Source: a virus. Taken from it: a stretch of DNA of 36,675 nt. Positions 17,653-36,675 of the stretch are shown here, one piece after another. The DNA lies in the IMG/VR virus record IMGVR_UViG_3300035042_000056, positions 1 to 36,675 of that record; one strand, 5' to 3'. Under the pieces are notes generated by a model. It searched no databases and had not been told where the DNA came from. It saw only the letters and a list, made by a program, of their open reading frames with translations. The position numbers were made by a program, and so were the translations under genes. Position 1 is the first letter of the stretch. Each line of letters begins with the position of its first letter.

Positions 17653-20583
17653 GTGGCTCAGAAAAAAGGTATAACTGTAGAAATTGGAGCATCGACAAAA
17701 GGCCTTGACAAGGCTCTTAAAGATATTCGTTCTCAATCAAGAAAAATAGGAAGAGAATTATACCAGGTTAATCGAGCATTAAAATTCAATCCAGACTCAG
17801 TTGAACTCTGGGCTCAAAAACAGGATATTCTTACAGAAAGAGTTGAGCAAACTAAAGAAAAACTTGATGTATTAAAACAAGCTGAAAAAGACATGCAGAA
17901 ACAATATAAGTCTGGAGATGTTGGAGAAAAGGAATACCGGGAATATCGCAGAGAGCTGATTAAAACTGAAGATCAGCTTGAAAGTTTTACAGATGAACTC
18001 GAGAAAACCCAAAGAAAAGCGAATGAATTTAGCAGAAAGATGCAAAAAGCTGCGGACGGCATGGAAAAGTTCGGGAATAGAATGAAAGGAATCGGTGATA
18101 ACCTTAATACTCATGTCACTTTACCTATTACAGCTGCCTTTTTTGCGCTTACAGAAGGAACAAGAGATTTTAGAAAAGAAGTTTCGACTCTTGAAAATAA
18201 CGCTCGAACTGCAAATGTAAGTATTGATGAAATGCACGGATATATGTCAGATCTTAACGCCGTTACTGGCGAATTAGATTCTAACGTTGAGGGATTATCC
18301 AGTTTGTTAGCTGCAGGTTTCAGAGATGAACAATTATCAAGTGTTATTGATGATATAGCTGGTGCTGTTATACAGTTCCCAGACACATTGAAGTTTGAAA
18401 ATTTATCTGAATCAATCCAGGAAACTATTGGATCGGGACAGTCAGTTGGTCAATTTGATGAAATGCTGTCAAGATTAGGTATTAATTTAGATGATTTTAA
18501 TGAAGGGCTGCAGACTGCAAAAGAAAACGGCAAAGCAACTGATTATGTAATGCAGACTCTTGCCAATACCGGACTATCAGATGTATATGAGCAGTATAAA
18601 GATAATAATGAAGCACTTGTAGAAAGTGCAGAAGCTAATTATGATTTAGAGCAATCTTTAGCTGAATTAGGTGCAGAACTAGAACCAATAATGACTCAAA
18701 TAAAGGAAAATGTCATAGATGTAGTAGATGCTTTCAATGACTTATCAGAAGAAGAGCAAGACATGGTTATTTTTGGTGCAGGAGTGGCGGCTGCTTTAGG
18801 ACCAGTATTAAGCATTACCGGAAACTTATCTCTTACATTGAGCTCTTTAACAAATGTAATTAACGGAGCCGGCGGATTAACTGCAGCTTTAAATCCTTAT
18901 ATGATCGGCGGAGCTGTTATAGTAGGCTTTGGCCTTCTTGCAAAAAGAATTTACGAGGGAAACAAGCAGCTTAAATTTATGGAGCGAAATGTTAAATCGC
19001 TAAACGAAGCCGAACTTAAAAGAAGAAAAGACCTACTTGAATCTGACATCCAAAAAGAAGAACGGAGATTAGAGGCTCGCAGAAATGGGGCAAGCGAAGA
19101 TTCCATAATAGGTGAAAAATATTCTATAAGCGAATCACAAAACAGATTGAATAATCTAAAAAAAGATTTAGATGAGACTGAAAAGGCTTTGCAAGAAATT
19201 GAAGAAACTAACAATGAATTAGAAGAAGTAGATTTATCTGGTGGCGGTGGCGGAGGTTCAACATCTGATCAAAGCGATTACAAAAATTACATTGATGAAT
19301 TAAGAGCTGAAATAGAATCATATAATTTTGAGCAAGAAGTAGAAAATATGTCTAATGACTCAGAAAAAGCCTGGGCTAAATTAGAAAATAAAATGTATGG
19401 TGAATTTGAAAGAATTGATAATCTCAAAGATGCAACAGCTGAACAAAAAGAAAAATTAAAAGAAATGGTTGAGCAATTCTACAATAACCAGTATAAAGAT
19501 TATCTTGAAGAAGTTAACGAACAGGAAGAAGAGGAAGCAGAGCGCCGCAAAGAGGCTGCTATTGAAAGGGAAGAACAATTGCAAAATGAGCTTGAGCTTC
19601 TCAAAAAAGATGGTAAAGAAAGAGAACTTGCTCAATTAGAGCAGCAGTATGAAGCTGAAAAAGAATTGATGCAGGAAAAAGGCCAGGATACAGCCACTCT
19701 CACAAAAATTTATCGAGAAAAAAGATTAGATATTATTGAAAAATATAATAAAAAAGAACTTCAACTTGAAAGAGAGAAAATGGAAAACCGCTTTGAAATG
19801 GGTAAAATATCTGAAACTCAATATCGAAAATATTTAAGAGAGCGTCTAAAACAATATGAAAAAGACACTGATGAATGGCGGCGAATTAGAGAAAAAATAA
19901 ATGAAACATTAAAAGCAGAAAGCGATCCTAATGACTTTTCAACTAATCTTGCCAATCTCGGAAGAATGGGAAGAAATGCAGCTACTGGCTATACTGGAGA
20001 AAGCGATTCAAAAGAAGGAGCCAAATCTATCAACTGGATGACTGATGCTTTTGTTGATTTAGGACTAGAAATCGAAGAAGCTAACCAGAAATTTGTTGAT
20101 TGGAAAGATGATTTAATAACTGGCTTATCAGATGCAATAGCTAGAGGCGAAGACTTAGGAGATGTATTCGACAATATAGCTGATCAAATTGCTTCAATGG
20201 TATTACAAAAAGCTGTTGTTGGCCCTATAGTTAATTATGCTTTAGGCGGTTTAAATCTTCCAACCTTCCATGAAGGAGGTTTTGTTAGCCCAGCTAATGC
20301 TATTGCAAAAATGCAGAGGTATCACGAAGGTGGAGGAATCGGCCTTAAAAGTAATGAAGTGCCTGCAATTTTAGAAAATGGCGAATATGTGCTAAATAAA
20401 GACCAGGTAAAAGGATTACAAAATGGTGGTGGTTCAGCGCCAATAAATATATTCGACATTACTGCCATTGATACTCAATCATTTGCTGAATATGTTAGTA
20501 GAAATCCGGATGCAATTATCAATGTTGTAGGCCGAGATATTATGAGAAATGGAACTCTTAGACAAGCTATTAAAAAATCTTAA
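17653..20583 (+). CDS. Tape measure protein
   Basis: 976 aa. GTG start after GGGAGGTGA. Long coiled-coil regions, a central hydrophobic segment, and the expected position. Confidence 0.9.
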   Translation: MAQKKGITVEIGASTKGLDKALKDIRSQSRKIGRELYQVNRALKFNPDSVELWAQKQDILTERVEQTKEKLDVLKQAEKDMQKQYKSGDVGEKEYREYRRELIKTEDQLESFTDELEKTQRKANEFSRKMQKAADGMEKFGNRMKGIGDNLNTHVTLPITAAFFALTEGTRDFRKEVSTLENNARTANVSIDEMHGYMSDLNAVTGELDSNVEGLSSLLAAGFRDEQLSSVIDDIAGAVIQFPDTLKFENLSESIQETIGSGQSVGQFDEMLSRLGINLDDFNEGLQTAKENGKATDYVMQTLANTGLSDVYEQYKDNNEALVESAEANYDLEQSLAELGAELEPIMTQIKENVIDVVDAFNDLSEEEQDMVIFGAGVAAALGPVLSITGNLSLTLSSLTNVINGAGGLTAALNPYMIGGAVIVGFGLLAKRIYEGNKQLKFMERNVKSLNEAELKRRKDLLESDIQKEERRLEARRNGASEDSIIGEKYSISESQNRLNNLKKDLDETEKALQEIEETNNELEEVDLSGGGGGGSTSDQSDYKNYIDELRAEIESYNFEQEVENMSNDSEKAWAKLENKMYGEFERIDNLKDATAEQKEKLKEMVEQFYNNQYKDYLEEVNEQEEEEAERRKEAAIEREEQLQNELELLKKDGKERELAQLEQQYEAEKELMQEKGQDTATLTKIYREKRLDIIEKYNKKELQLEREKMENRFEMGKISETQYRKYLRERLKQYEKDTDEWRRIREKINETLKAESDPNDFSTNLANLGRMGRNAATGYTGESDSKEGAKSINWMTDAFVDLGLEIEEANQKFVDWKDDLITGLSDAIARGEDLGDVFDNIADQIASMVLQKAVVGPIVNYALGGLNLPTFHEGGFVSPANAIAKMQRYHEGGGIGLKSNEVPAILENGEYVLNKDQVKGLQNGGGSAPINIFDITAIDTQSFAEYVSRNPDAIINVVGRDIMRNGTLRQAIKKS

Positions 20584-22182: not shown

Positions 22183-24921
22183 ATGGGAGTAGGAGCATTA
22201 GTTGGATTAGCAGCAGGAGCTGCAGCAGCTAGTACAGCGGCAAGTGTTACAGTAGCAGCCGGAGCAATGATTGGATTTAGTGTAGGTAATTCTTATGACA
22301 ACTATAAAGAAGCCAAAGAATTTCAAGAAAGCATGAATCAATCAAAAAATTCTCCAACATATTCATTTGGCCCGATTAGTAATACTAAGTCTCATCAGAT
22401 ACCAGTCCCGGTAGTTTATGGCCGGAATCTTGTAGCAGGAAACATAATTAACCAAAAGATTCGCGGCGAAAATGATAATTTAATGGATCTGCAAGTTGGA
22501 ATTTCGGAAGGCCCGATTGAATCAATTTCAGAAATCAAAGCCGATGATAAATCTATTAGTGCAGAAACTAGATTAGGATATAGAAACCAATCTTCATGGT
22601 CGAAAAACGAGCATTCTCAAACATTTCCTTATCTTGCCCATTACTCAACAACTTTAGATGCTGAAAAACTAGAGACATCAGGCACTCCAACTATGACCGC
22701 GATTGTAAAAGGGCGGCATGTAAGAGTTTGGACCGGCAGCCGATGGATAACAAAATACAGTAATAACCCTGCCTGGTGTGTTTTAGATTTTATAAGTAAC
22801 AAAAGATTTGGTTTTGGTGTCGCTGATGCTTTTATAGATTTAGAAACTTTCAAAGAGGCTGCAGAATATGCTGATCAATATGTGGACGGGGAAAAGCGCT
22901 TTGAGTTAGATTTTGTTATTGATGCTAAAAGTTCAGCATTGGATATTCTTAATGAGATGCTTTCTACTTTTAGAGCATTTCTTATCTGGTCCGATGGAAA
23001 ATTAAAATTAAAGATTGATAAACCAGATGTAGCAACTCAAAGTTTTATATTTTCTGATGATGAAGAAACAGATAATATTATCGAAGGAAGCTTTGGAAGG
23101 CGAGGTTCTTCCAGGAAAGAAAGATTAAGAGAAGTTGTAGTTGAATATACGGACCCAGCTGAAAACTTTGAAACTATTGGAGCTAGATTCATAGATAACA
23201 GCGTGTCTGGTGAAGCTATGAAAACTATAACCCTGAATGGTGTTAATAGATTTTCTCAAGCGGGTAGAGAAGCAAGATATTATCAGAAAAAATCAAAGTT
23301 ATGCACTCAAATAATTAGCTTTGGTGCTGGTATAAACTCAATTGAAGCAGAAGTAGGAGATAAAATATTAGTTACTCATGAAAGGCCTGGGTGGGTAGAC
23401 AAACCTTTTCGTATAACAGAAATATCAGAAGACAATGAAGAAAATATGTCTATTACTGCTATTGAATATAATGAAGCAATATATACTGACGATGGTTTAG
23501 TCCAGCAGGAAAATTATGCATCTACATTTAAAAATCCTTTTGAAGCGCCAAAAGAAGTTAACAATTTATCTGTTACTGAATATGGATATACAACTATAGA
23601 TGGAAATCTTAATTCTAATCTAGTTGTTGAATTTGATATTCCTGACGATGAAAGATTTGACCATGCAGTTGTTGATTATTCAGAAGATGGAGGAAATTAT
23701 CAAATAGCTGGAACAACCGAAACTGATGATTATGAAATTAAGAATCTTAAAGTTAATTCCAATTATAAAATTAGAGTTAGATCAGTGTCAAAATATAGAG
23801 GGATAACAAGTGCGGGAGTGGTTTCAAACTCAATAGTTATTTCTGGGAAAGATAATAAACCTGCAGCGCCCAATACTCTGCAAGTAGCTCAAAAAGGAGC
23901 AAAAGTTATTTTTAAATGGTCTGAAGTTGATGAACCAGACATATTAGGTTATGAAATTAGAAAAGGAACCGACTGGGAAAACGGAGATATTCTCGGGACC
24001 AAACTAACTGGGGATAGATGGACATCAGAAAATGAACTAGATGGCACTCACAGATACATGATCAAGTCTATTGATAGAGTTAAGCAAAAATCAGTAAATT
24101 ATACTTCTACTATTTTTGAGGTTTCAGATACAGGCCTCGAACTCAATATAATACAGGAAAGAAATGAACTTAATTATATAGACAATGCTACACTTGAAAA
24201 TTTAAGCAAAATAAATAATAAAATTATGTTTAATCATATGTTTACTCTTAATGATTTGCAAAATTATACTCTTAACGATTGGCCTGATTTGGAAGCTTAT
24301 TCAAACGGAATTCCAGATTTTGAGAAACAGGCAAATTACATTACAGAAGCTATAGACACAGGTCATGTAGGCAGAACTGATATAAGGATTAAAAAAGATT
24401 GGTTTTTTCAAGATTTAGATTTAAGTTTACTTAGTTTCAATGATAGAAATCTAAATGATTTCCCAAATAACAGTATGAATAATCCACCTGCAATATATGA
24501 TACTCAAATTTATGTAAAATTTTCTGATGATAACATAGACTGGTCTGACTGGCAGCAGTATATGACAGGCGAATATAAGTTCAGATACGCGCAATTTAAG
24601 GCTGAAATTAATATAGAAACTGAAAGCACAGAATTTGAAATTGAGCAACTTGAAATGATATTTGATGTTCCTGATTTAGAACTTGTAGAAAGATATATTT
24701 CAGTTGATACAGGTGGGAAAACAATAAATTATTCTGATTATGGGATAGAATTTTATAAAGTTCCGGTTAGATATTCCGCTGATATTGTTCAGAATGGGTC
24801 AACAATGAAATATGCTAACTTTACAAATAAAAGTAAAACAAGTGTAGATGTAAAAATATTAGATATTAACAACAATGATGTCGGAGGGACAATAGAAGAA
24901 TTAATAATAGAAGGATATTAA
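22183..24921 (+). CDS. Host-specificity / central tail-tip protein (gpJ-like) with a fibronectin-III-like region
   Basis: 912 aa. NPAWCVLDFISNKRFGFG is a gpJ-like motif; PAAPNTLQVAQKGAKVIFKWSEVDEPDILGYEIR is FN3-like. Confidence 0.75.
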   Translation: MGVGALVGLAAGAAAASTAASVTVAAGAMIGFSVGNSYDNYKEAKEFQESMNQSKNSPTYSFGPISNTKSHQIPVPVVYGRNLVAGNIINQKIRGENDNLMDLQVGISEGPIESISEIKADDKSISAETRLGYRNQSSWSKNEHSQTFPYLAHYSTTLDAEKLETSGTPTMTAIVKGRHVRVWTGSRWITKYSNNPAWCVLDFISNKRFGFGVADAFIDLETFKEAAEYADQYVDGEKRFELDFVIDAKSSALDILNEMLSTFRAFLIWSDGKLKLKIDKPDVATQSFIFSDDEETDNIIEGSFGRRGSSRKERLREVVVEYTDPAENFETIGARFIDNSVSGEAMKTITLNGVNRFSQAGREARYYQKKSKLCTQIISFGAGINSIEAEVGDKILVTHERPGWVDKPFRITEISEDNEENMSITAIEYNEAIYTDDGLVQQENYASTFKNPFEAPKEVNNLSVTEYGYTTIDGNLNSNLVVEFDIPDDERFDHAVVDYSEDGGNYQIAGTTETDDYEIKNLKVNSNYKIRVRSVSKYRGITSAGVVSNSIVISGKDNKPAAPNTLQVAQKGAKVIFKWSEVDEPDILGYEIRKGTDWENGDILGTKLTGDRWTSENELDGTHRYMIKSIDRVKQKSVNYTSTIFEVSDTGLELNIIQERNELNYIDNATLENLSKINNKIMFNHMFTLNDLQNYTLNDWPDLEAYSNGIPDFEKQANYITEAIDTGHVGRTDIRIKKDWFFQDLDLSLLSFNDRNLNDFPNNSMNNPPAIYDTQIYVKFSDDNIDWSDWQQYMTGEYKFRYAQFKAEINIETESTEFEIEQLEMIFDVPDLELVERYISVDTGGKTINYSDYGIEFYKVPVRYSADIVQNGSTMKYANFTNKSKTSVDVKILDINNNDVGGTIEELIIEGY

Positions 24922-24933
24922 AGGAGTGATCAG

Positions 24934-25629
24934 ATGACTCAAGAATATCATAAATCGTTAGCAGATATGGGAGACTCTAACGGCCCCAAACTGGCCGAAT
25001 ATCTCCATGAAAACTTTGAAACAATAATAAGCCAATGGGCAGGAGCAAGTTCTCCTGGGTCTCCTACTCAAGGCCAACCATGGTTAGATATTTCATCGGG
25101 CTGGACTGACGCTAAATTAAAATTTTGGAACGGCTCAAGCTGGATATTAGCAAATGAGTATAATCCGTATATAAAAGACTTAAGAGTTGCCAGGGGTTCA
25201 AAAGAAACCCTCTGGGAGCGGTTGGAAGTAGCTATGAATGAGGACGGAACTATCAAGTCTGACCTTGCTGAAAATATGACCGAATGGATTGACAGCGCGT
25301 TAACTGTAACATATGTAAGCGCTGAAACTTTTACAGTGCCCGGAGATTACACGGATGTATTTGTCACCAATAGAAAAATAAAAGCGACATTAGATTCTAG
25401 TTCAGTATATTCTGCTGTAGAATCAGCTAATTACAGCTCAACTAATGATGAGACAACTATAGTTCTATTTGATGCAGTAATAGATGGAACAATTCAAAAA
25501 GTAGAGTACGGGCTTGTAAAAGCTGGCCCTGAGGGCTCAAACCCAGAAAACAACTTAATAGACGAAACAACAGGGGATATTTACGAATTTAAAATGATTG
25601 ACGGCTCATTAGCAATGGAGGTTAGATAA
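24934..25629 (+). CDS. Putative tail fibre / fibre-adaptor protein
   Basis: Lies between the gpJ-like protein and the DGR target. The N-terminal GQPWLDISSGWTDAKLKFWNGSSW pattern occurs in fibre N-termini. Confidence 0.4.
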   Translation: MTQEYHKSLADMGDSNGPKLAEYLHENFETIISQWAGASSPGSPTQGQPWLDISSGWTDAKLKFWNGSSWILANEYNPYIKDLRVARGSKETLWERLEVAMNEDGTIKSDLAENMTEWIDSALTVTYVSAETFTVPGDYTDVFVTNRKIKATLDSSSVYSAVESANYSSTNDETTIVLFDAVIDGTIQKVEYGLVKAGPEGSNPENNLIDETTGDIYEFKMIDGSLAMEVR

Positions 25630-25630
25630 C

Positions 25631-25942
25631 ATGAGAGGTTTTCCAAAAGTGCTTAATTCAAGACAGGATTATGAAAATGTGATTAATGACTTTGGCTACA
25701 CACCAAAAGTAAAAAGAGCATACCAGGGGCTGCTAAATACAGCCAAAAAGTATGAGTTTGACAAAGAACTTGCAGCAGAATCTGATAGAACTGGCCCGGA
25801 GCCTGAGTACAAAGTTATGACTCAGGAAGAAGATGGAACAGAAAAGATAGTGCAGTTCAAACTTGTTGATAACCCAAACGGGAAAATATTTAGGTTAGGG
25901 TTCACTATTGATGAAGTCCAGGAGGTGATTGATCAATGTTAA
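25631..25942 (+). CDS. Hypothetical protein (103 aa), fibre-associated by position
   Basis: Translationally coupled on both sides; contains one TGGCCCGG copy. Confidence 0.4.
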   Translation: MRGFPKVLNSRQDYENVINDFGYTPKVKRAYQGLLNTAKKYEFDKELAAESDRTGPEPEYKVMTQEEDGTEKIVQFKLVDNPNGKIFRLGFTIDEVQEVIDQC

Positions 25943-26973
25943 CTTTTGTTGGAGCTGATTCACCTTCATTTTTCAACTTCAAAGGACATATTGAAAAGAG
26001 TGCAGCTGATGAAATTGCAGTGCCGCCTTTGGCATTAAGAATTGACAGGCAGAATCTCAAAAAAGAAACTGATACTATTTTGACTGCAGCAGATAATGAC
26101 GGAAGTTTTGCGAGCTTCACTCTTGGTGAAAACTATTATGTGTATGCACTGCAGTCAGCTGATGGTGCTGAGCCAGAATTTGCAGTTTCAATCAATTCTA
26201 CTTATCCAGACGGTTACACAGAAAATAATTCGAGAAAGATAGGCGGCTTTCATTATGGACGTATCAGAACAAATGCTCAAAGATATGATGATGCAGCCTC
26301 AATTGCAGTCAATATAATTCCTAATTCAGTCTGGTCATTGAACTACAGACCTGCCTGTGACCCGACCGGAATGGTCAAAGTTTCAAACTTCTGGGCTGAT
26401 ATTTATCTTGCCAGTGAAGGCAGCGGCACCTGGCCGGAGACTGAACTTGTGAGTGAATATAACGCAACACCAGTCTCGGGAACTGAAGGTTATAATGATT
26501 ATGATTTCATTAGAGGGCTTGCAAATGTCAACAAAAGAAAATTAACTGGCCAAGAATGGGATATGGCTGCTTACGGAAGTCCCGAAGGCCATGATGGTGA
26601 TAACAATGCCGCCTGGTCTGCAACAAGCAACTCAGGCAGAACAGCAACTGGAACTGTAGAACAAGCGGTTTCCTGCTATAATCTTGTTGATTGTGCAGGT
26701 AACCTTTGGGAAAGAATAGATGAATATATGTATAGATATGCAGGCACTTCTTCATTTGACTGGCATGATGTTCTTAACATGGGAAAAGACAGCAGTTATC
26801 AGCATGGAGAAGCATATATGCAGGGAAATCCTTCTATTGTGGTCCTCCTCGCTGGTGGCAACTTCGGCAATGGCGGTAGTTGTGGTTCTCGGGCGGTCTA
26901 CTCGTACGGTTACCCGTGGTACGTGAACACTACCTTTGGCGTGCGTGGCGCCTGTGATCATCAGTCAGCCTGA
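25936..26973 (+). CDS. DGR target: receptor-binding tail-fibre protein with a C-type-lectin / FGE-like fold and a C-terminal variable region
   Basis: CAGNLWERIDEY (GNxWEW-like) plus the C-terminal GGNFGNGGSCGSRAVYSYGYPWYVNTTFGVRGAC scaffold. The last ~41 codons form the VR that pairs with the TR at 27393-27515. Confidence 0.85.
   Translation: MLTFVGADSPSFFNFKGHIEKSAADEIAVPPLALRIDRQNLKKETDTILTAADNDGSFASFTLGENYYVYALQSADGAEPEFAVSINSTYPDGYTENNSRKIGGFHYGRIRTNAQRYDDAASIAVNIIPNSVWSLNYRPACDPTGMVKVSNFWADIYLASEGSGTWPETELVSEYNATPVSGTEGYNDYDFIRGLANVNKRKLTGQEWDMAAYGSPEGHDGDNNAAWSATSNSGRTATGTVEQAVSCYNLVDCAGNLWERIDEYMYRYAGTSSFDWHDVLNMGKDSSYQHGEAYMQGNPSIVVLLAGGNFGNGGSCGSRAVYSYGYPWYVNTTFGVRGACDHQSA
26840..26962 (+). 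repeat. DGR variable repeat (VR)
   Basis: Aligns without gaps to 27393-27515 at an offset of 553. There are 15 mismatches, 14 of them at TR adenines. Confidence 0.9.
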
Positions 26974-27023
26974 TAATCTGAAAACGGTTTTTGGTTAGGT
27001 TTCGAACTTGAAGGAGTGATGAT

Positions 27024-27371
27024 TTGGCGGATCCGGAAGACTTAGATATATATCAAAAACATTATGATTTTATGTGTTATTTTTTCCCGGTGGTTGATAA
27101 CTTTCCAAAGTACGAAAAATTTGTTCTTTGCACCAGCATAAAAAATATAACACTTAAAATATTTGACTTAATAATAGAAGCTAATGAAACTTATGGTAGT
27201 AAATTGAGGTTTCTTAATAGAATAGATTTGCAGCTTAAAAAATTAAAATTGCAGGTTAGATTTGCAAGAGATATGACTCATTTATCACCGAGAAAACATG
27301 AAATTGTAGTCAAAAAAATAGACGAAATTGGGCGGCTTTTAGGCGGCTGGATTAAGTCTTGTAAAAAATAA
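27024..27371 (+). CDS. avd: Accessory variability determinant (Avd; four-helix-bundle protein)
   Basis: 115 aa between VR and TR. TTG start 7 nt after GAAGGAG. YQKHYDFMCYFFPVVDNFPKYEKFVLCTSIKNITLKIFDLIIEAN matches the four-helix-bundle/Avd pattern. Confidence 0.75.
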   Translation: MADPEDLDIYQKHYDFMCYFFPVVDNFPKYEKFVLCTSIKNITLKIFDLIIEANETYGSKLRFLNRIDLQLKKLKLQVRFARDMTHLSPRKHEIVVKKIDEIGRLLGGWIKSCKK

Positions 27372-27392
27372 ATTTTACAGGGCTAAGGGCGT

Positions 27393-27515
27393 TGGTCCTC
27401 ATCGCTGGTGGCAACTTCAACAATGGCAGTAATTGTGGTTCTCGGACGGTCAACTCGAACAATAACCCGTGGAACGTGAACACTAACATTGGCGTGCGTG
27501 GCGCCTGTGCTCATC
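27393..27515 (+). repeat. DGR template repeat (TR)
   Basis: Non-coding copy of the VR, rich in AAC/AAT codons in the VR frame (VLIAGGNFNNGSNCGSRTVNSNNNPWNVNTNIGVRGAC). I counted 28 adenines. Confidence 0.9.
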
Positions 27516-27766
27516 TAAAAATTTATCAGACAGTATGGGGTCAAGGCCTCTGCTGCAGTGTTCAAAAAGATGAACAGGCCTTTAGTCCTTCCTGAGATAC
27601 ATTTTGTCCCTCCAGGAAAACATATAAATTACTAATTAGATAGCAAGTAGCGAAATATCGAAAGCTGTCACGATTAGTTATGAGCTCGCTCTCATTTGAG
27701 CGGGCTTTAATATTTCACCTAATATATAGAGAGTGGTGATTATTTATCCCGAAAACAGTCAAAAAT
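27516..27766 (+). ncRNA. TR-RT spacer; likely the structured 3' part of the DGR RNA
   Basis: 250 nt, non-coding. Nested inverted repeats: 27543-27549/27576-27582, 27559-27564/27571-27576, 27589-27594/27613-27618, 27683-27691/27698-27706. Confidence 0.5.
27683..27714 (+). terminator. Terminator-like hairpin upstream of the RT start
   Basis: AGCTCGCTC / GAGCGGGCT form a 9-bp stem (one G-U pair) with loop TCATTT, followed by TTAATATT. Confidence 0.45.
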
Positions 27767-28858
27767 TTGTTTGAAAAAATAACTGACTATCATAAATTAG
27801 AGGAAGCAACAAAAAATGCTCAGAAAAGAAAACGATATAAACCGGAAGTATTAAAATTTAATTATAATTTAGAAAGAAATCTTATAGAAATACAAAATGA
27901 GTTAATCTGGAAAACATATAAACAGGGAGAATACAGGCAGTTTTATGTTTATGAGCCAAAGAAAAGATTGATCATGGCGCTCCCTTTCAGAGACAGAGTA
28001 GTTCAATGGAGCATCTATCAGACTCTTTATCCAATATTCGATAGAACATTCTACAGATACAGCTGTGCCTGCAGAAGGAAGAAGGGAACTCACTTTGCTG
28101 CATATCAGCTGCAGGATAAGATAAAGATAATGGATCGAAAGCCTGGCAAAACATATTTTCTCAAAGCTGACGTGTCAAAATATTTTTATCGCATAGTTCA
28201 TAAAAGATTATTTCAGTTAATCAAAAGGAAAATCAGCTGCAGAAATACATTAGAATTAATCTGGCAGATTATTAAAAGTGAAGATGGTGAATTTGGTATT
28301 CAGCTGGGTGATCACTTCTTTGAAAATAAGAAAGTCAAAGGAATTGGCACACCGATCGGTAATTTAATGAGCCAACTTTTTGCTAATATTTATCTTGACT
28401 TTCTCGATAAATTTGTAAAGCATACTCTGGGAGTCAAATATTATATTCGTTATATGGATGACTTCGTGCTTTTGGGCAAAGACAAAAAGAACCTTCACAC
28501 TATCAGGCAAGAAATAGAAATTTTTCTTGACGATTATCTCCAACTGCAGCTTAATAATAAAACTACTGTTGGTCATGTAAGTGAGGGAATTGATTTTTGC
28601 GGATATGTTTTATATCCGAGTTATAGTAATTTAAGAAAATCTACTAAAAAGAAAATGAAAAAGAGGTTCAAATATCTCAACAAAAAGTATTTTGAAGGGA
28701 AGGTGGATATTGAAGATATTAATGCAAGTGTTAATTCCTATTTAGGAATAATTAAGCACTGCGATAGTTATAATTTAAAAATGTCAGTAATAAGCAAGTT
28801 AGATGATCATATACTTGAACAGTTGGATTTAGGAGACCGGTTTAGATTAAAAAGTTGA
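27767..28858 (+). CDS. DGR reverse transcriptase
   Basis: PKKRLIMALPFRDRVVQ (motifs 1-2), GTPIGNLMSQLFANIYL (DGR-diagnostic IGNxxSQ) and YIRYMDDFVLLG (YMDD). There is no maturase or endonuclease domain. TTG is the first canonical start. Confidence 0.9.
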   Translation: MFEKITDYHKLEEATKNAQKRKRYKPEVLKFNYNLERNLIEIQNELIWKTYKQGEYRQFYVYEPKKRLIMALPFRDRVVQWSIYQTLYPIFDRTFYRYSCACRRKKGTHFAAYQLQDKIKIMDRKPGKTYFLKADVSKYFYRIVHKRLFQLIKRKISCRNTLELIWQIIKSEDGEFGIQLGDHFFENKKVKGIGTPIGNLMSQLFANIYLDFLDKFVKHTLGVKYYIRYMDDFVLLGKDKKNLHTIRQEIEIFLDDYLQLQLNNKTTVGHVSEGIDFCGYVLYPSYSNLRKSTKKKMKKRFKYLNKKYFEGKVDIEDINASVNSYLGIIKHCDSYNLKMSVISKLDDHILEQLDLGDRFRLKS

Positions 28859-28921
28859 TGCAATATACAGATAAACAAAAACTTTTGCCTTGTAGCGGGG
28901 GCTGTTTTGAGGTGAAAAGGC

Positions 28922-29380
28922 GTGAATGCAAAGTGGAGACCATTTATTGATGAAGTAATCTATTACTGGAATAAATTTTTTGAACATACCGTAATCAAAG
29001 GTTTTCTTGCGGCAGGGGGCACTATACTGACTATGCTATTTGGGGATATTAATGCAGCAATGCAGGGGTTTCTTATTCTTTTAGCTGCAGACTATATAAC
29101 AGGTTTAACAAAAGCTGGGAAAAGAGGGCAGTTATCAAGCTGGATGTCAAGAAAGGGTTGGGGAAAACTAGCAACCTATTCGATTGTGATTTCTTTAGGG
29201 CATTTGATAACTCAAATAGGCATGGATGGAATGAGAGATTTTGTATTATTGTGGGCTGGAGCAACTGAAGCAATATCAATATTAGAAAATTGTGATGAAT
29301 TAGGTGTAATAATTCCTGATTTTATGCGAGAAAAATTATTGAATACTAAAGAAAATAAATTTGGAGAGGAGCCAGATTAA
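28922..29380 (+). CDS. Holin (Phage_holin_4_1-like)
   Basis: LLAADYITGLTKAGKRGQLSSWMSRKGWGKLATYSIVISLGHL...EAISILENCDELGV. Multiple TM segments; precedes the endolysin. Confidence 0.7.
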   Translation: MNAKWRPFIDEVIYYWNKFFEHTVIKGFLAAGGTILTMLFGDINAAMQGFLILLAADYITGLTKAGKRGQLSSWMSRKGWGKLATYSIVISLGHLITQIGMDGMRDFVLLWAGATEAISILENCDELGVIIPDFMREKLLNTKENKFGEEPD

Positions 29381-29910
29381 TGGATAATATATTTAAAGAA
29401 GCTTTTGAGGAAGTAATGGAAATTGAGGGCGGCTATGTTAACCATAAAGATGATCCCGGGGGAGCGACTAACTTTGGCATTACAGAAGCTGTTGCCAGAA
29501 GAAATGGTTATGAAGGGAACATGAGAGATTTAAAGTTGCATCAGGCCAGAGATATTTATTACAAAGAATTTTGGTTAGATCATAAGTACAACAAAATTCA
29601 AAACCGAGATATTGCAAAAGAAATGTTTGATCAGGCAGTTAACATGGGACAAACTACTGCTAATAGAAATTTACAGAAATCTAACAATTTGTTAACAGCT
29701 GATGATGATATTTATCCTATCAGTGTTGATGGGGTAATGGGGCCGCAAACTCTGAAAGCCATCAATCATTGCAGCAAACCCATTGCTCTTTTTAATATTC
29801 TTAATGGCTATCAGATTAAGCATTATATTAATCTTGCTGAAAATAGCAAAAAATATAAATCATTTATAGCCGGTTGGGCTAATAATCGAATCGAGATTAT
29901 CAGAAAATGA
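29380..29910 (+). CDS. Endolysin: GH108 muramidase with a PG_binding_3 domain
   Basis: EIEGGYVNHKDDPGGATNFGIT (GH108 signature) and VDGVMGPQTLKAIN (peptidoglycan-binding). Confidence 0.8.
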   Translation: MDNIFKEAFEEVMEIEGGYVNHKDDPGGATNFGITEAVARRNGYEGNMRDLKLHQARDIYYKEFWLDHKYNKIQNRDIAKEMFDQAVNMGQTTANRNLQKSNNLLTADDDIYPISVDGVMGPQTLKAINHCSKPIALFNILNGYQIKHYINLAENSKKYKSFIAGWANNRIEIIRK

Positions 29911-30089
29911 ATTTATTCAAAGACTGGGATAAGTTATTAAAAGATGATGATTTTCAGCAAGACTTGATTTTTCTAATATATATAACTATTTTACTTATGT
30001 TCAATGTTATACCGAACGAAACTTTCAGTATGTTGGCAGCGGTTATAATAGGTGGTGATGCAGTAAAAAAGTTGGGAAGGGGAAAATGA
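29907..30089 (+). CDS. Small membrane protein (60 aa), lysis-associated by position
   Basis: ATGA overlap with the endolysin; hydrophobic core LIFLIYITILLMFNVI...MLAAVIIGG. Confidence 0.45.
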   Translation: MNLFKDWDKLLKDDDFQQDLIFLIYITILLMFNVIPNETFSMLAAVIIGGDAVKKLGRGK

Positions 30090-30538
30090 TGGGGCTATCA
30101 ATTAGTAGAGGTGGTGATTTAACACCGAAGCAACCAACTGTAGAAGAAAATATTGCGGCAGCAAATAAAATGCTAGATGAATATGGTAAAAAATTGGACG
30201 GCCAATATATTTATGACAATGGAATGTGGGATTTTTTGCTTTGGAAATATAAAGAATTAGGTAAGCCTGAAAGCGTGAAAGAGAAATTAATTAACCTTGC
30301 TGCTGGTCAAATGATTAATATTATTTTTGGAGGGGGTGATCTTGTGGATAAAGATGCTATTTTAGAACTTGTTGCTAATGCAATGTCTGATATTATGGAC
30401 CAAACAGAACTTGATGACATAGCTTTTGACAAAGCTGCTGATTTTGTAAAAGAACAAATCCCTGGCGATTATATAGAACCTGTAGTTGGCCGAGTTATGG
30501 TTGGAATAGGCGAAGAGTTAATGAAACAAAAAAAATAA
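30086..30538 (+). CDS. Hypothetical soluble acidic protein (150 aa); last gene before attP
   Basis: ATGA overlap with the upstream ORF; followed by a strong terminator. No recognised motif. Confidence 0.5.
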   Translation: MMGLSISRGGDLTPKQPTVEENIAAANKMLDEYGKKLDGQYIYDNGMWDFLLWKYKELGKPESVKEKLINLAAGQMINIIFGGGDLVDKDAILELVANAMSDIMDQTELDDIAFDKAADFVKEQIPGDYIEPVVGRVMVGIGEELMKQKK

Positions 30539-30557
30539 AATAATTATTTAGCATTTA

Positions 30558-30591
30558 ACCTCCAGACAAAATGCCTGGAGGTCTTTTTTTA
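30558..30591 (+). terminator. Rho-independent terminator of the late/lysis operon
   Basis: ACCTCCAG / CTGGAGGT form a perfect 8-bp stem with a 9-nt loop, followed by CTTTTTTTATTT. Confidence 0.75.
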
Positions 30592-30833
30592 TTTATAGAG
30601 AACTATATAAAGAGAGAATCCTGCACAAATCCTGCACCCAATCAGTTAACATATGTTAATATAATGAATTTGGAAAGAAAATAAAAACCCTATAATCTCC
30701 GTTATATCGTAGATTGGTTAATATTTGTTAATAATAGTAATTTGTACTCGCATAACATGTGATTGTGCGCATAAAATAACTAAAGTATTAATATAACAGG
30801 GATTATAGGGAATGGTCAGTGCAAAATCCTGCA
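30592..30833. other. Candidate attP region
   Basis: A non-coding ~240 bp adjacent to int, dense in direct and inverted repeats (see the repeat features and the attP finding). Confidence 0.45.
30617..30637 (+). repeat. Tandem pair AATCCTGCAC-N-AATCCTGCAC (distal)
   Basis: Exact copies at 30617-30626 and 30628-30637. Confidence 0.9.
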
Positions 30834-30845
30834 CTAATCCTGCAC
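30825..30845 (+). repeat. Tandem pair AATCCTGCAC-N-AATCCTGCAC (int-proximal; overlaps the int stop codon)
   Basis: Exact copies at 30825-30834 and 30836-30845, in the same orientation as the distal pair 208 bp away. Confidence 0.9.
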
Positions 30846-32006
30846 TGAGAAAACGGACCCTACAGCTTTTGAAATATCATTTCTCGCTCTTTCAAAATCT
30901 TTCTTTAGAAAATGGCTGTAAGTATCAGCAGTAATCACGTAAGAAGAGTGGCCGAGTAACTTTTGAAGTTCTTTAATATTTTTGTTTTCAGCTAAAAATA
31001 GAGATGCAAAAGTGTGTCGAAATATATGGGATGTGATCCAGTCAGGGAAGCCGCCAGCTTCTCTGGCTTTTCTTATTTTATTCTGTACAGTTCTGGGAGC
31101 ATAATGTTCTCCATCATCTTTGCAAAGAATTAAATTATGGTCCTTATATTCATCGCCTAAGTGCATTTTCATTTCCTGCTGCCTTTTCCAGATACCGCGA
31201 TAAAAGTTTGCTAGGCTATCTGATATAGGTATCTTTCTAAACCTATCAGCCGCTTTCGGAGTCTCTTTAAATACAGTTCCTCTGCCGATAACATAGACAG
31301 CAACCTGCTCAACAGTAATAATCCCCTTGCTAAAGTTTAAATCCTTCCACCTGGAGCCTATCATCTCCTCAAGACACATTCCGGTATTAATTGCAATGTA
31401 ACAATAATCAAATAGATACTGATCATAATCCTGAACAAATTCTAGCCATTTTTTAAGCATATCTCTATTGATTGCTTTTACTTTTTTCTTTTTCTTTGTG
31501 ACTTTTCGCTGAGTTTTGCCACCAGGCTTCCTGACATTCTGTATTGGATTTTGATAAATATAATTCATTTCATCGGCATAAGTGAGAGCAGAAGAGATAA
31601 TCGCATAATGATATTGTTGAGTTTTTGTACTTCCGCCGCGCTTTCGAATAGAAGTGAGGTAAGACTGAATGTGAGCCGGCTGAATCTCTTTAAGTTTTAA
31701 TTTACCCAGCATTTTTAGAACTTGATGATAGAGTACATTATAGTACCTATCATGAGTAACAGGAGACAGCTGCTCATCTACATACTCATCAAACCACCTG
31801 TCAATATACTGCTTGAAAGTCATGTTGGCAAATTCCATCAAGATGCCCGTTTCTTTTTCTAGCTCTTTATCTCTGGCCCACCTTTGAGCTTCTTTTTTTG
31901 TATCGAAAGTGCTGCTTTCTCTAATTTGTTTACCTTCAGAATCCCGGCCCATATAGACAAATACTTCCCAGTTGCCTGCTTTAGTCTTTCTGGGTTCACT
32001 TGCCAT
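30834..32006 (-). CDS. int: Tyrosine integrase with an N-terminal arm-type DNA-binding domain
   Basis: C-terminal HIFRHTFASLFL...LLGHSSYVITADTYSH (R..H-x-x-R..Y catalytic pattern). The N-terminal KAGNWEVFVYMGRDSEGKQIRESSTFDTKKEAQRW is arm-binding-like. Confidence 0.9.
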   Translation of the reverse strand: MASEPRKTKAGNWEVFVYMGRDSEGKQIRESSTFDTKKEAQRWARDKELEKETGILMEFANMTFKQYIDRWFDEYVDEQLSPVTHDRYYNVLYHQVLKMLGKLKLKEIQPAHIQSYLTSIRKRGGSTKTQQYHYAIISSALTYADEMNYIYQNPIQNVRKPGGKTQRKVTKKKKKVKAINRDMLKKWLEFVQDYDQYLFDYCYIAINTGMCLEEMIGSRWKDLNFSKGIITVEQVAVYVIGRGTVFKETPKAADRFRKIPISDSLANFYRGIWKRQQEMKMHLGDEYKDHNLILCKDDGEHYAPRTVQNKIRKAREAGGFPDWITSHIFRHTFASLFLAENKNIKELQKLLGHSSYVITADTYSHFLKKDFERARNDISKAVGSVFSVQD

Positions 32007-36215: not shown

Positions 36216-36675
36216 ATGGCTAGGCCACAAAAATCAGGGATAGATTACTTCACTATAGACACCAACATGGAAGACAAAATTAAACTTGTAGAGGCTAAAT
36301 ATGGCTTAGAAGGATTCGGGTTTTTGATTAAACTCTGGCAGAAAATTTACAGCCAGAAGTATTACATCGACTGGACAGAGGAAATCCAATTACTATTCAG
36401 TAGCGAGGTTAATGTCAACATTAACAAGATTAATGACATCATTAACGATTGTGTCAAATGGGGCGTTTTTAACCAGGAACTTTTTGAAAAACACAATATA
36501 TTAACCAGTCACGGAATCCAGTTAAGATATAAGGAAGCCACCTATAGACGCAAAAAAGTGGAGATGAAAGAGGATTATTTGCTGCTAAAAGATGATGAAA
36601 TTAACTCAAATATAGTTAATGAGAACAATAACCCGATTAATGATAACAAAAACCTAAAAAATGATGACAAAAGTA
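36216..36675 (+). CDS. Replisome organizer / replication initiator, N-terminal part. It continues in frame into 1-477 across the circular junction; the full protein is about 269 aa.
   Basis: ATG at 36216 and open to the window end. 36549 minus 36216 is a multiple of 3, so the frame joins frame 1 of bases 1-477. The N-terminus MARPQKSGIDYFTIDTNMEDKIKLVEAKYGLEGFGFLIKLW looks like the DUF4373-type N-domain of phage replisome organizers. Confidence 0.7.
   Translation, partial: MARPQKSGIDYFTIDTNMEDKIKLVEAKYGLEGFGFLIKLWQKIYSQKYYIDWTEEIQLLFSSEVNVNINKINDIINDCVKWGVFNQELFEKHNILTSHGIQLRYKEATYRRKKVEMKEDYLLLKDDEINSNIVNENNNPINDNKNLKNDDKS
36549..36675. repeat. Terminal direct repeat, copy B; identical to 1-127
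   Basis: Same 127-nt string as the window start. Confidence 0.95.

Follow-up and report, generated by a model that had tools for sequence, protein, structure and literature searches.

The window, the 36,675-nt stretch of DNA analysed here (positions 1 to 36,675 of IMG/VR record IMGVR_UViG_3300035042_000056), is the complete genome of a temperate siphovirus-type phage. This low-GC genome (~35%) of about 36.5 kb is circularly closed by a 127-nt terminal overlap, and its assembly runs through the VR of the element described below. Halanaerobium salsuginis carries a related prophage, and the host of the window phage is probably a Halanaerobium-like member of the Bacillota. A comparison with GenBank phages returned no close relative, the sole match being the RT gene of Bacillus phage BalMu-1 (146 nt, 76% identity), and no Rfam family matched the window at gathering thresholds. 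The element comprises, in this order and all on the plus strand, a gene for an Mtd-like target, avd, TR, a structured spacer RNA and an RT gene. A 19-mer, GGCGTGCGTGGCGCCTGTG, occurs exactly twice in the window against an expectation of 0; there are just two repeat copies in the window, and a second target gene is absent. The features are the following.

22183-24921: J-like tail-tip gene, directly preceding the DGR target gene
25936..26973, plus strand: DGR target gene for an Mtd-like receptor-binding tail protein (345 aa), with VR at its 3' end
26840..26962, plus strand: VR, 123 nt, the last ~41 residues before the C-terminal tail, aligned to TR without gaps
26938..26962, plus strand: IMH-like 3' end of VR, GC-rich GGCGTGCGTGGCGCC followed by TGTGATCATC
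26960..26974, plus strand: candidate target-site hairpin (ATCAG-TCAGC-CTGAT) overlapping the stop codon, low confidence
27024..27371, plus strand: avd, accessory variability determinant (115 aa), with NCBIfam, Pfam and PHROG matches
27380..27390, plus strand: GGGCUAAGGGC, predicted upstream strand of a long-range duplex with spacer positions 27578-27588, ending 2 nt before TR
27393..27515, plus strand: TR, non-coding, between avd and the RT gene, with 28 adenines
27516..27766, plus strand: spacer (Sp) of the DGR RNA, with a structure predicted by RNAalifold
27529-27556, plus strand: predicted Sp stem-loop with a CAAG tetraloop and two bulged bases
27568-27573, plus strand: candidate Sp primer strand AGAUGA, pairing with TR 27511-27516
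27578-27588, plus strand: putative Sp stop-duplex strand, the partner of 27380-27390
27589-27618, plus strand: predicted Sp stem-loop, followed by adenosines
27631-27678, plus strand: predicted Sp helix
27682..27707, plus strand: terminator-like hairpin from a terminator scan, U-rich at its tail, located after the spacer and before the RT gene
27767..28858, plus strand: DGR reverse transcriptase gene (363 aa, TTG start)

The target protein matches Pfam mtd_2nd (PF21916, E 1.2e-23) and PHROG 11262, annotated as 'tail protein' (E 1e-51). A phmmer search aligned residues 52-342 with the BPP-1 Mtd structures 2iou/1yu0 (E 4e-15), including a common C-terminal G-x-R-G-x-C-D-H. All 10 positions that vary among three PDB Mtd variants align to adenine-bearing TR codons. 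Mtd was not significant when C-terminal fragments were used as queries: the last 158 aa alone retrieved only the C-terminal region of EgtB-IV (E 0.002), which we take to be an FGE/CLec-like domain, and the last 85 aa gave Mtd at E 0.11. VR lies within the last 45 codons of the 345-aa ORF, so that a VR at the 3' end of a coding target is paired with a non-coding TR, as in other DGRs. As in BPP-1-type elements, the target is an Mtd homologue, and VR probably falls on a C-terminal CLec-fold domain.

Avd is identified by NCBIfam NF033474 DivGenRetAVD (E 8e-31, 106 bits against a cutoff of 80), Pfam bAvd (PF22296, E 2.3e-27) and PHROG 3206 'Avd protein of DGR' (E 1e-31), with a PDB match to 4dwl, deposited as 'Bbp7' (E 5.5e-3). 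DGRs have an accessory protein of the Avd or HRDC type, and here it is Avd. The RT matches Pfam RVT_1 (E 4e-22) and PHROG 1423 (E 9e-131), and no NCBIfam model scored above its cutoff. Its best PDB match is 8ub7, an entry named 'Reverse transcriptase' (E 1.4e-49); the best group II intron RT in the PDB is about 30 orders of magnitude weaker (E 6e-18). The signature [I/V/L]GxxxSQ, as defined in PMC7826257, is present as IGNLMSQ together with the catalytic YMDD, placing an RT of the DGR clade with a YxDD motif in the same cassette. The bRT residues R74, D138 and I181 correspond to R67, D135 and I197 of the window RT. Two bRT residues promote adenine mutagenesis (PMC7826257), and the counterparts of R74 and I181 are conserved.

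Based on a direct comparison of the two repeats, VR and TR align without gaps at an offset of 553, as originally predicted, and homology collapses on both sides of the span. There are 15 mismatches over 123 nt. Fourteen of these fall on TR adenines, where the VR base is C, G or T, rather than being spread over the four TR bases (28 A, 33 G, 32 C, 30 T; hypergeometric P = 5.5e-10 for at least 14 of 15 mismatches on A). The 14 sites are those listed in the original prediction (26848, 26866, 26867, 26875, 26879, 26893, 26899, 26905, 26908, 26909, 26911, 26920, 26933 and 26935), and its counts of 28 TR adenines with 14 substituted are correct. So are the 12 recoded codons (I>L, N>G, S>G, N>S, T>A, N>Y, N>Y, N>G, N>Y, N>Y, N>T and I>F), and the scaffold codons that it named (GG, CGSR, PW and GVRGAC) are free of adenine. 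The further statement that no C, G or T of TR is changed in the repeat body stands when the 3' IMH-like end is excluded, but fails within 26840-26962 as a whole, where A26957 of VR faces C27510 of TR (Asp versus Ala) in that end. In the VR frame, 16 of the TR adenines are at codon position 1, 12 at position 2 and none at position 3, mostly within AAC/AAT codons. Of the two copies, the one rich in adenine is non-coding and adjoins the RT, and the sole ORF across it is a 67-aa mechanical echo of the VR frame. One of the 14 sites deserves caution. The window TR has one extra codon (ATC) relative to the TRs of sister phages, and the window VR has at the 26848 codon the same state as the sister VRs (CTC). 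Given these two observations, 26848 may never have been converted, and the mismatch there may be ancestral instead of an A>C product of mutagenesis.

Public contigs of related phages allowed the same comparison across genomes, with the relatives standing in for read mapping of the window's own sample. Sister IMG/VR contigs (for example IMGVR_UViG_3300026744_000001, 3300013018_000012 and 3300026737_000004) have the same cassette and an RT with 92% amino acid identity to that of the window. Four of the sisters (L001, L002, L003 and L015), from different samples, are nearly identical outside VR: pairwise there are no differences in the 904 nt of the target gene before VR, in 114 aligned TR bases, in the spacer (252 nt) or in the RT gene (1092 nt), and 0-1 in 354 nt of avd. 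Their VRs differ at 12-17 positions per 117 nt. By this proxy TR is far from being as polymorphic as VR, and an invariant TR with a variable VR is thus seen in the sister lineage. No other stretch of the cassette is as conserved among relatives as TR, which is identical in seven sister contigs and has one polymorphic column among the eight compared. Of the 23 polymorphic VR columns in the relatives, 21 are TR-adenine columns. Over all relatives, a diversity profile did not single out VR, because the whole target gene is 10-19% divergent between sub-lineages; the profile is informative just among near-identical contigs.

Pooling 14 VR/TR pairs gives 356 TR adenines, of which 149 are replaced in VR (70 by G, 41 by C and 38 by T), and 8 mismatches at other TR bases, so that differences almost exclusively at TR adenines characterize both the window and 13 further related pairs. 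Six non-A sites, one A/T site and the extra codon distinguish the window TR from the sister TRs, and all 6 non-A differences are mirrored in each lineage's own VR. At the column of 27432, VR is substituted just where TR has A (in the window and in L039), and is an invariant T where TR has T.

Two ENA contigs, ERZ27247961/2, have the same cassette and an RT gene with 100% nucleotide identity to that of the window. They were considered as VR alleles of the same lineage and rejected, as the two contigs with the exact RT carry TR and avd of the sister type. The sister contigs and the window share the final ~75 nt of TR and most of the spacer without a difference (0-4% difference between the window spacer and those of relatives, against ~27% in avd); avd is 20-27% and the target gene 16-19% different. 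With these differences in TR, avd and the target gene, the window's cassette is therefore a recombinant mosaic. Patterns with N at every TR adenine, one long and one short, found neither the window's TR type nor other VR alleles of it in the IMG/VR or JGI metagenome contigs, collections that lack the window itself. Exact-protein look-ups of Avd and of a small ORF upstream of the target returned no other contig; the one with the RT gave two, those with the sister-type TR and avd.

At the 3' end of VR we used the definition of IMH given by Wu et al. (PMC5758913). A 15-nt GC-rich element without adenines (26938-26952) opens the IMH-like end, and a single difference, at 26957/27510, separates it from the TR copy (IMH*). 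There is no adenine substitution 3' of 26935 in the window VR, homology stops at 26962, and all 13 VR/TR pairs with the adenine of TR 27513 (VR 26960) retain it without substitution. The window thus has an IMH that is distinct from IMH*, GC-rich at its start and located at the 3' limit of mutagenesis. Just downstream of VR, no GC-rich hairpin or cruciform of the BPP-1 type was found. The candidate hairpin at 26960-26974 has a 5-bp stem and is given low confidence because it is short and AT-rich. Its stem is retained with differing loops in the L001 family and L009, has a T.T mismatch in L007, L008 and L010, and is missing from L012 and L013; as a cruciform analogue it is therefore weak. A high-confidence GC-rich repeat is present in just 34% of DGRs (Wu et al., PMC5758913), so a cruciform is not defining for DGRs as a whole.

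The flank of TR and the spacer have a predicted RNA structure that recalls the architecture described for BPP-1 (Handa et al., bioRxiv 10.1101/2023.10.23.563531): all four elements occur in the same order and each helix is backed by covariation, in a small sample. The duplex between 27380-27390 and 27578-27588 is paired in the MFE fold, with 11 of 11 pairs 100% paired over 8 sequences and 3 pairs changed on both sides, and may be the counterpart of the avd:Sp 'cPRT Stop' duplex of BPP-1. When pairs were counted explicitly, 96.8% of cells proved paired, with changes on both sides in 20 pairs; the model comprises 8 sequences from about 4 lineages and derives partly from the window's own fold. 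Shuffles gave 3.9 such pairs (0 of 500 reached 20) and slid controls 2-8. After manual re-registration, L012 retains the short TR:Sp duplex through 3 both-side changes. The terminator-like hairpin is predicted to form 10 pairs, 6 of them GC, which are 100% paired and include 2 pairs changed on both sides. We matched the RNA elements to those of BPP-1 by order and shape, and the functions that the match suggests are putative.

The non-adenine mismatch at 26957/27510 can be placed on this model. It is not a point mutation specific to the window, as L007, L008, L010 and L012 share VR-A/TR-C. Of the 8 non-A mismatches in the 14 VR/TR pairs, 5 are at this site; C27510 of TR is invariant across lineages, and the matching VR site is tri-allelic (A, T, C) among related phages. 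C27510 is immediately 5' of the covarying 6-bp TR:spacer duplex 27511-27516/27568-27573. In BPP-1, TR G117 is next to the priming Sp A56, for which C27510 and Sp A27573 are the candidate counterparts here. That the recurrent non-A site marks the cDNA initiation nucleotide is an unlikely idea. If true, priming would occur at Sp A27573 and templating would begin with C27510, and priming or junction resolution would itself produce another hotspot, one not tied to adenine, at a position occupied by Asp in Mtd.

The original prediction read the adenine-specific mismatches as a signature of mutagenic retrohoming. The machinery in canonical order, the adenine specificity in 14 pairs and the VR-confined diversity in sister phages all agree with that reading. 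We consider it very probable that this temperate siphovirus-type phage has a functional DGR of the BPP-1 type. In the proposed mechanism, an RNA comprising the avd 3' flank, TR and spacer would be transcribed and fold around an RT-Avd complex, with the long-range and the short TR:spacer duplexes bracketing the template. The RT would prime on the spacer and copy TR toward its 5' end, faithfully at C, G and U and with random nucleotides inserted opposite adenines. The cDNA would then replace the homologous VR at the 3' end of the Mtd-like gene, the 3' boundary being set by the GC-rich IMH-like end and the 5' boundary by homology. The 6 of 6 concerted non-A changes of TR and VR lend indirect support to this sequence of cDNA synthesis with adenine misincorporation and retrohoming. 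Because the TR adenines are all at codon positions 1 or 2, about 17 ligand-face codons would be randomised with no stops possible and the scaffold fixed. The priming nucleotide, the initiation site and the role assigned to each RNA element are suggested by analogy with BPP-1, as is the presumed benefit, host-receptor switching.

Could a repeat of this kind arise without reverse transcription, if the 3' end of the gene was simply duplicated and the copies then diverged neutrally or underwent gene conversion? Nothing beyond a direct repeat speaks for such an origin. It is effectively refuted already by mismatches limited to one base of one copy, by the same bias in the 13 further VR/TR pairs, by the adjoining RT and Avd, and by a TR that is invariant while VR varies between otherwise identical genomes. 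A further concern is that assembly may have merged co-existing alleles into a consensus or chimeric VR haplotype; the DGR would then be real, and the 14 substitutions and 12 residues would occur together in no single phage. Assemblers typically break at hypervariable sites, and two independent ENA assemblies of relatives do break in or near VR-avd (L039 starts ~110 nt before VR, L040 inside avd). The window, however, assembles through VR into a circularly closed 36.5-kb genome with a 127-nt overlap, and the reading frame through its VR stays open and encodes plausible residues (Tyr, Gly, Ser). We regard a composite VR as unlikely.

Decay of the element after past retrohoming, with an inactive DGR and a frozen VR, would leave the same mismatches. 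Such decay does occur in this phage group, since in the H. salsuginis prophage VR is still present whereas avd, TR, the spacer and RT codons 1-230 are gone, and a single genome of the window's exact lineage was found. Against this, the window retains every part intact: the RT is full length and has its catalytic and fidelity residues, Avd and TR are present, and the RNA helices are paired. The RT gene shows 0 differences in 1092 nt to two other assemblies, VR follows the window-specific TR at all 6 non-A sites, and sister phages with near-identical machinery are diversifying. A fossil is thus very improbable, and the intact parts and the concerted evolution of TR and VR suggest that the functional DGR which we favor is currently active in the window phage.

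The window provides a well-resolved DGR in a group of phages linked to Halanaerobium, and possibly a handle on receptor switching in Halanaerobium phages. The public sister contigs amount to a natural experiment, with near-identical genomes that differ in VR and a VR that tracks TR at non-A sites, and a decayed copy of the DGR persists in a cultured host. The spacer RNA is conserved and covarying, in support of the proposed extension of the BPP-1 priming/stop architecture to Bacillota phages.

The order of target, avd, TR and RT is the same as in the prototype, the BPP-1 DGR (mtd-avd-TR-brt). Shared with BPP-1 are an Mtd-homologous target through GxRGxCDH with aligned variable positions, an Avd homologue, an RT that is closest to 8ub7 and has conserved fidelity residues, and a VR that lies 3'-terminally in its gene and has a GC-rich IMH-like element. 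The phages themselves are different, BPP-1 being a Bordetella podovirus and the window a low-GC temperate siphovirus-type phage with a probable Halanaerobium-like Bacillota host, and the target has low sequence identity to Mtd of BPP-1. TR has 28 adenines in the window versus 22-23 in BPP-1, and in contrast to BPP-1, IMH and IMH* differ here at one base only. BPP-1 needs a GC-rich cruciform for efficient homing, whereas the window VR is followed by just a weak AT-rich counterpart. Unlike BPP-1, the window has a terminator-like hairpin between the spacer and the RT gene. The string 'Halanaerob' has 0 occurrences in the main text of the survey by Wu et al. 2018 (PMC5758913). The DGRs of Bacillota phages and prophages in that survey are much like that of the window, with a single adjacent target and at most one non-A substitution. 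The variation described there also covers an IMH nearly identical to IMH* and the absence of a high-confidence GC-rich inverted repeat, and we see no qualitative difference between the window DGR and the DGRs of that study. Our understanding of DGRs is unchanged by this element; it is a textbook DGR, real and ordinary for its kind, and its value is that of a clean annotated example.

The variable region (VR, 26840-26962) and the template region (TR, 27393-27515) were compared base by base. They align without gaps at an offset of 553, identity collapses right outside these limits, and the window contains only these two copies of the repeat. There are 15 mismatches in total. Fourteen fall exactly where the original prediction had placed them; each has A in the TR, which is the downstream copy, and C, G or T in the VR, which lies upstream (A>G 7, A>T 5, A>C 2). 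For a TR composition of 28 A in 123 bases, P = 5.5e-10 for at least 14 of 15 mismatches falling on A. The observation of adenine-specific mismatches is confirmed, although the claim that no other TR base is changed within the repeat body holds only when the IMH-like 3' end is left out, as the fifteenth mismatch sets a VR A (26957; Asp) against a TR C (27510; Ala). In the frame of the target gene (ORF 25936-26973), TR adenines occupy codon position 1 sixteen times, position 2 twelve times and position 3 never. A codon-by-codon comparison returned precisely the 12 recoded codons predicted for the 14 substitutions. A 67-aa ORF with a TTG start (27392-27595) runs over the TR in the VR frame; most simply, it is no gene but a by-product of copying the gene's end.

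The VR forms the 3' end of a 345-aa ORF with a match to the Pfam 'Mtd second domain' (E 1e-23). The encoded protein is a direct sequence homologue of the BPP-1 major tropism determinant, Mtd (PDB 2iou/1yu0, E 4e-15). Target residues 52-342 align with Mtd residues 90-373, and both proteins end G-x-R-G-x-C-D-H. The Mtd variants P1, P3c and M1 from the PDB align to the window VR without gaps and differ at positions 344, 346, 347, 350, 357, 360, 364, 366, 368 and 369. All ten align with adenine-bearing TR codons (nine Asn, one Ile), seven of which are substituted in the window VR. Thus, judging from this alignment, the diversified face would be the same structural face as in Mtd.

Fifty nucleotides downstream of the target ORF lies avd (27024-27371). 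Its 115-aa product scores 106 bits against the NCBIfam DGR (diversity-generating retroelement) Avd equivalog (cutoff 80) and matches Pfam bAvd (E 2e-27). The TR, a 251-nt spacer (27516-27766) and the reverse transcriptase (RT) gene (27767-28858) follow, and the order target-avd-TR-RT is that of BPP-1. The best solved relative of the 363-aa RT is PDB 8ub7 (E 1.4e-49; best group II intron RT, 6e-18), an entry named only 'Reverse transcriptase' that we take to be the BPP-1 RT, bRT. The window RT carries the DGR signature IGNLMSQ and the catalytic YMDD, and its R67 and I197 are conserved counterparts of bRT R74 and I181, which were experimentally shown to promote adenine mutagenesis (PMC7826257). 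The earliest possible RT start is the TTG at 27767, because an in-frame stop lies at 27737-27739. The same start is kept in relatives, and no obvious Shine-Dalgarno sequence was found close upstream of it.

Relatives comprised approximately 16 IMG/VR contigs found with the RT protein and an invariant 19-mer, to which one genome-collection match and two ENA contigs encoding an identical RT were added. Four sister contigs, each from a different sample (L001, L002, L003 and L015) show 0 differences in the 904 nt of the target gene preceding the VR, 0-1 in avd, and 0 in the TR, in the spacer and in the 1092 nt of the RT gene; mutually, they differ at 12-17 of 117 VR positions. With sister contigs serving as a proxy for the window's own reads, the TR is constant and the VR varies, as originally predicted. 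Six distinct VR alleles from the relatives vary at 23 columns, 21 of them TR-adenine columns (of 26 such columns); their TRs vary at one. Adenine specificity is also seen in distant lineages with TRs of their own (L007-L010, L012 with 17/17 at A, and L013 with 10/10 at A). When 14 distinct VR/TR pairs are pooled, substitutions affect 149 of the 356 TR adenines (42%; G 70, C 41, T 38), and there are 8 non-A mismatches. In vitro, bRT misincorporates at ~52% of template adenines (PMC7826257). Contigs L001, L004 and L014 (samples 3300026744, 3300026775 and 3300026736) share one and the same VR allele, two of whose changes are at non-A sites (TR C>G and G>C); thus, one VR haplotype persisted across samples, with others carrying different alleles of the same phage.

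Six non-adenine sites (27406, 27427, 27430, 27433, 27436 and 27440) distinguish the window TR from the sister TR. At all six, the window VR has the window-type base and every sister VR the sister-type base. This argues for TR-to-VR homogenisation, because independently evolving copies would not match the TR of their own lineage at 6 of 6 sites. Site 27432 serves as an internal control: the VR is substituted (G) in the window and the ENA contig L039, whose TRs have A here, and is invariant T in the six sisters whose TR has T. Compared with window positions 26731-31858, L039 (ERZ27247962) and the second ENA contig, L040 (ERZ27247961), have a nucleotide-identical RT gene (0 differences in 1092 nt), but 69 aligned avd positions differ in each (of 348 and 258, respectively) and both TRs are of the sister type. 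The cassette is therefore mosaic, the product of recombination with a breakpoint close to the TR or spacer. The start of each contig falls within or close to the VR-avd region, which is what one would expect of assemblies that break where a sequence is hypervariable.

The fifteenth mismatch, 26957/27510, lies 3' of a GC-rich element (26938-26952) and 22 nt past the last substituted adenine. A private mutation of the window is ruled out, as VR-A/TR-C also occurs in L007, L008, L010 and L012. The TR has C at this site everywhere; the VR has T in L022 and L039, and C in the L001 family of sister contigs and in L009. Across the window and L001-L039 the VRs are thus tri-allelic (A/T/C, encoding Asp/Val/Ala), and the site contributes five of the eight pooled non-A mismatches. 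The Asp encoded in the window agrees with the 'CDH' of Mtd. Three bases further on, at TR adenine 27513, none of the 13 VR/TR pairs with this base shows a substitution. The likeliest reading of the mismatch is an IMH/IMH*-type difference (the 3' ends of VR and TR), located outside the portion of the repeat that normally transfers. The GC-rich element and the homology end at 26962 fit the published IMH description (PMC5758913). No counterpart of the GC-rich cruciform after the BPP-1 VR was found, since the sole inverted repeat after the window VR is an AT-rich stem of 5 bp (26960-26974) that is not conserved in all relatives; in a survey, only 34% of DGRs had a high-confidence repeat (PMC5758913). 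Of the substituted adenine sites, 26848 may hold an unconverted ancestral VR base, because the window TR contains a codon (ATC) that the sister TR lacks and the VR state, CTC, is also that of the sister VRs.

No other part of the cassette approaches the TR and spacer in conservation: between the window and its relatives the spacer differs by 0-4%, avd by ~27% and the RT gene by 15%. An RNA layout was suggested by RNAalifold and an MFE fold, then written out and counted on an 8-sequence alignment. In this model, which draws on few lineages and partly on the window itself, 96.8% of cells are paired and 20 pairs have changes on both sides, versus 3.9 when columns are shuffled (none of 500 shuffles reaches 20) and 2-8 in slid controls. 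The first four elements below match, in order, those described for the RT-Avd-RNA particle of BPP-1 (Handa et al., bioRxiv 10.1101/2023.10.23.563531), and from this likeness we infer their functions; the last two lie further 3':

27380-27390 with spacer 27578-27588: duplex whose first strand lies just upstream of the TR and ends 2 nt before it; putative counterpart of the BPP-1 avd:Sp 'cPRT Stop'
27529-27556: stem-loop 13 nt past the TR (11 bp, two bulged bases, CAAG tetraloop), resembling the predicted Avd-binding stem-loops of the BPP-1 particle
27529-27556: stem-loop 13 nt past the TR (11 bp, two bulged bases, CAAG tetraloop), resembling the predicted Avd-binding stem-loops of the BPP-1 particle
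27589-27618: stem-loop with adenosines directly after it
27631-27678: strongly covarying helix
27682-27707: terminator-like hairpin followed by a U-rich tail, located after the spacer RNA and before the RT start codon

After correction of a MAFFT gap, L012 keeps the short core as UCUUUA:UAGAGA, with three changes on both sides. Both-side stem changes are also found in relatives for the 27682-27707 hairpin, which is absent in L013 and might determine where the DGR RNA stops at its 3' side, or reduce RT expression by attenuation. The two long-range duplexes bracket 27393-27515 almost exactly, which would account for the limits of VR/TR homology. Site 27510 is directly 5' of the short TR:spacer duplex, and one idea is that it is where the BPP-1 analogy would put the first templated nucleotide.

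The window ends in an exact 127-nt direct repeat (1-127 and 36549-36675) and therefore is most likely a complete phage genome of ~36.5 kb, circularly assembled or terminally redundant. GC content is ~35%, rising to 44% over the target gene. PHROG and Pfam scans across the window identified the genes around the DGR:

9237-11066: large terminase
Portal, head protease and major head protein
Major tail protein and tape measure (17653-20583)
22183-24921: J-like tail-tip protein
DGR, between the J-like tail-tip gene and the holin and endolysin
28922-29910: holin and GH108 endolysin
30834-32006, minus strand: integrase
CI-type repressor and anti-repressor

Based on this list, the DGR closes the tail module of a temperate siphovirus-type phage, a position at which one would expect a receptor-binding protein. 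Two ORFs (231 and 103 aa; 24934-25942) that separate the J-like tail-tip gene from the Mtd-like gene have no Pfam or PHROG match and may encode tail-fibre adaptor or assembly proteins. No close relative was found among GenBank phages. In the cultured strain Halanaerobium salsuginis ATCC 51327, one contig (L029; NZ_FOTI01000043.1, 1824-7993), which is also L016/L020 in IMG/VR, shows synteny with the window at 75-83% identity, starting in the tail genes and reaching the holin. It has no equivalent of 27032-28456 (avd, TR, spacer and RT codons 1-230) and keeps the Mtd-like gene and VR. This prophage carries a DGR that has decayed and whose VR is frozen, and H. salsuginis is the best host lead for this phage group.

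The complete cassette, the VR diversity of the sister contigs and TR-VR homogenisation support the original reading of the mismatches as DGR mutagenic retrohoming. On this sequence evidence, the element is a complete and very probably active DGR of the BPP-1 type, diversifying an Mtd-like tail protein. DGRs of this kind are thoroughly known, and all that we found lies within the variation already catalogued for them. Useful additions are the contigs that amount to a natural experiment, the recurrent non-adenine site beside the predicted priming duplex, and covarying helices that support a BPP-1-like RNA scaffold for a DGR from a Bacillota phage.
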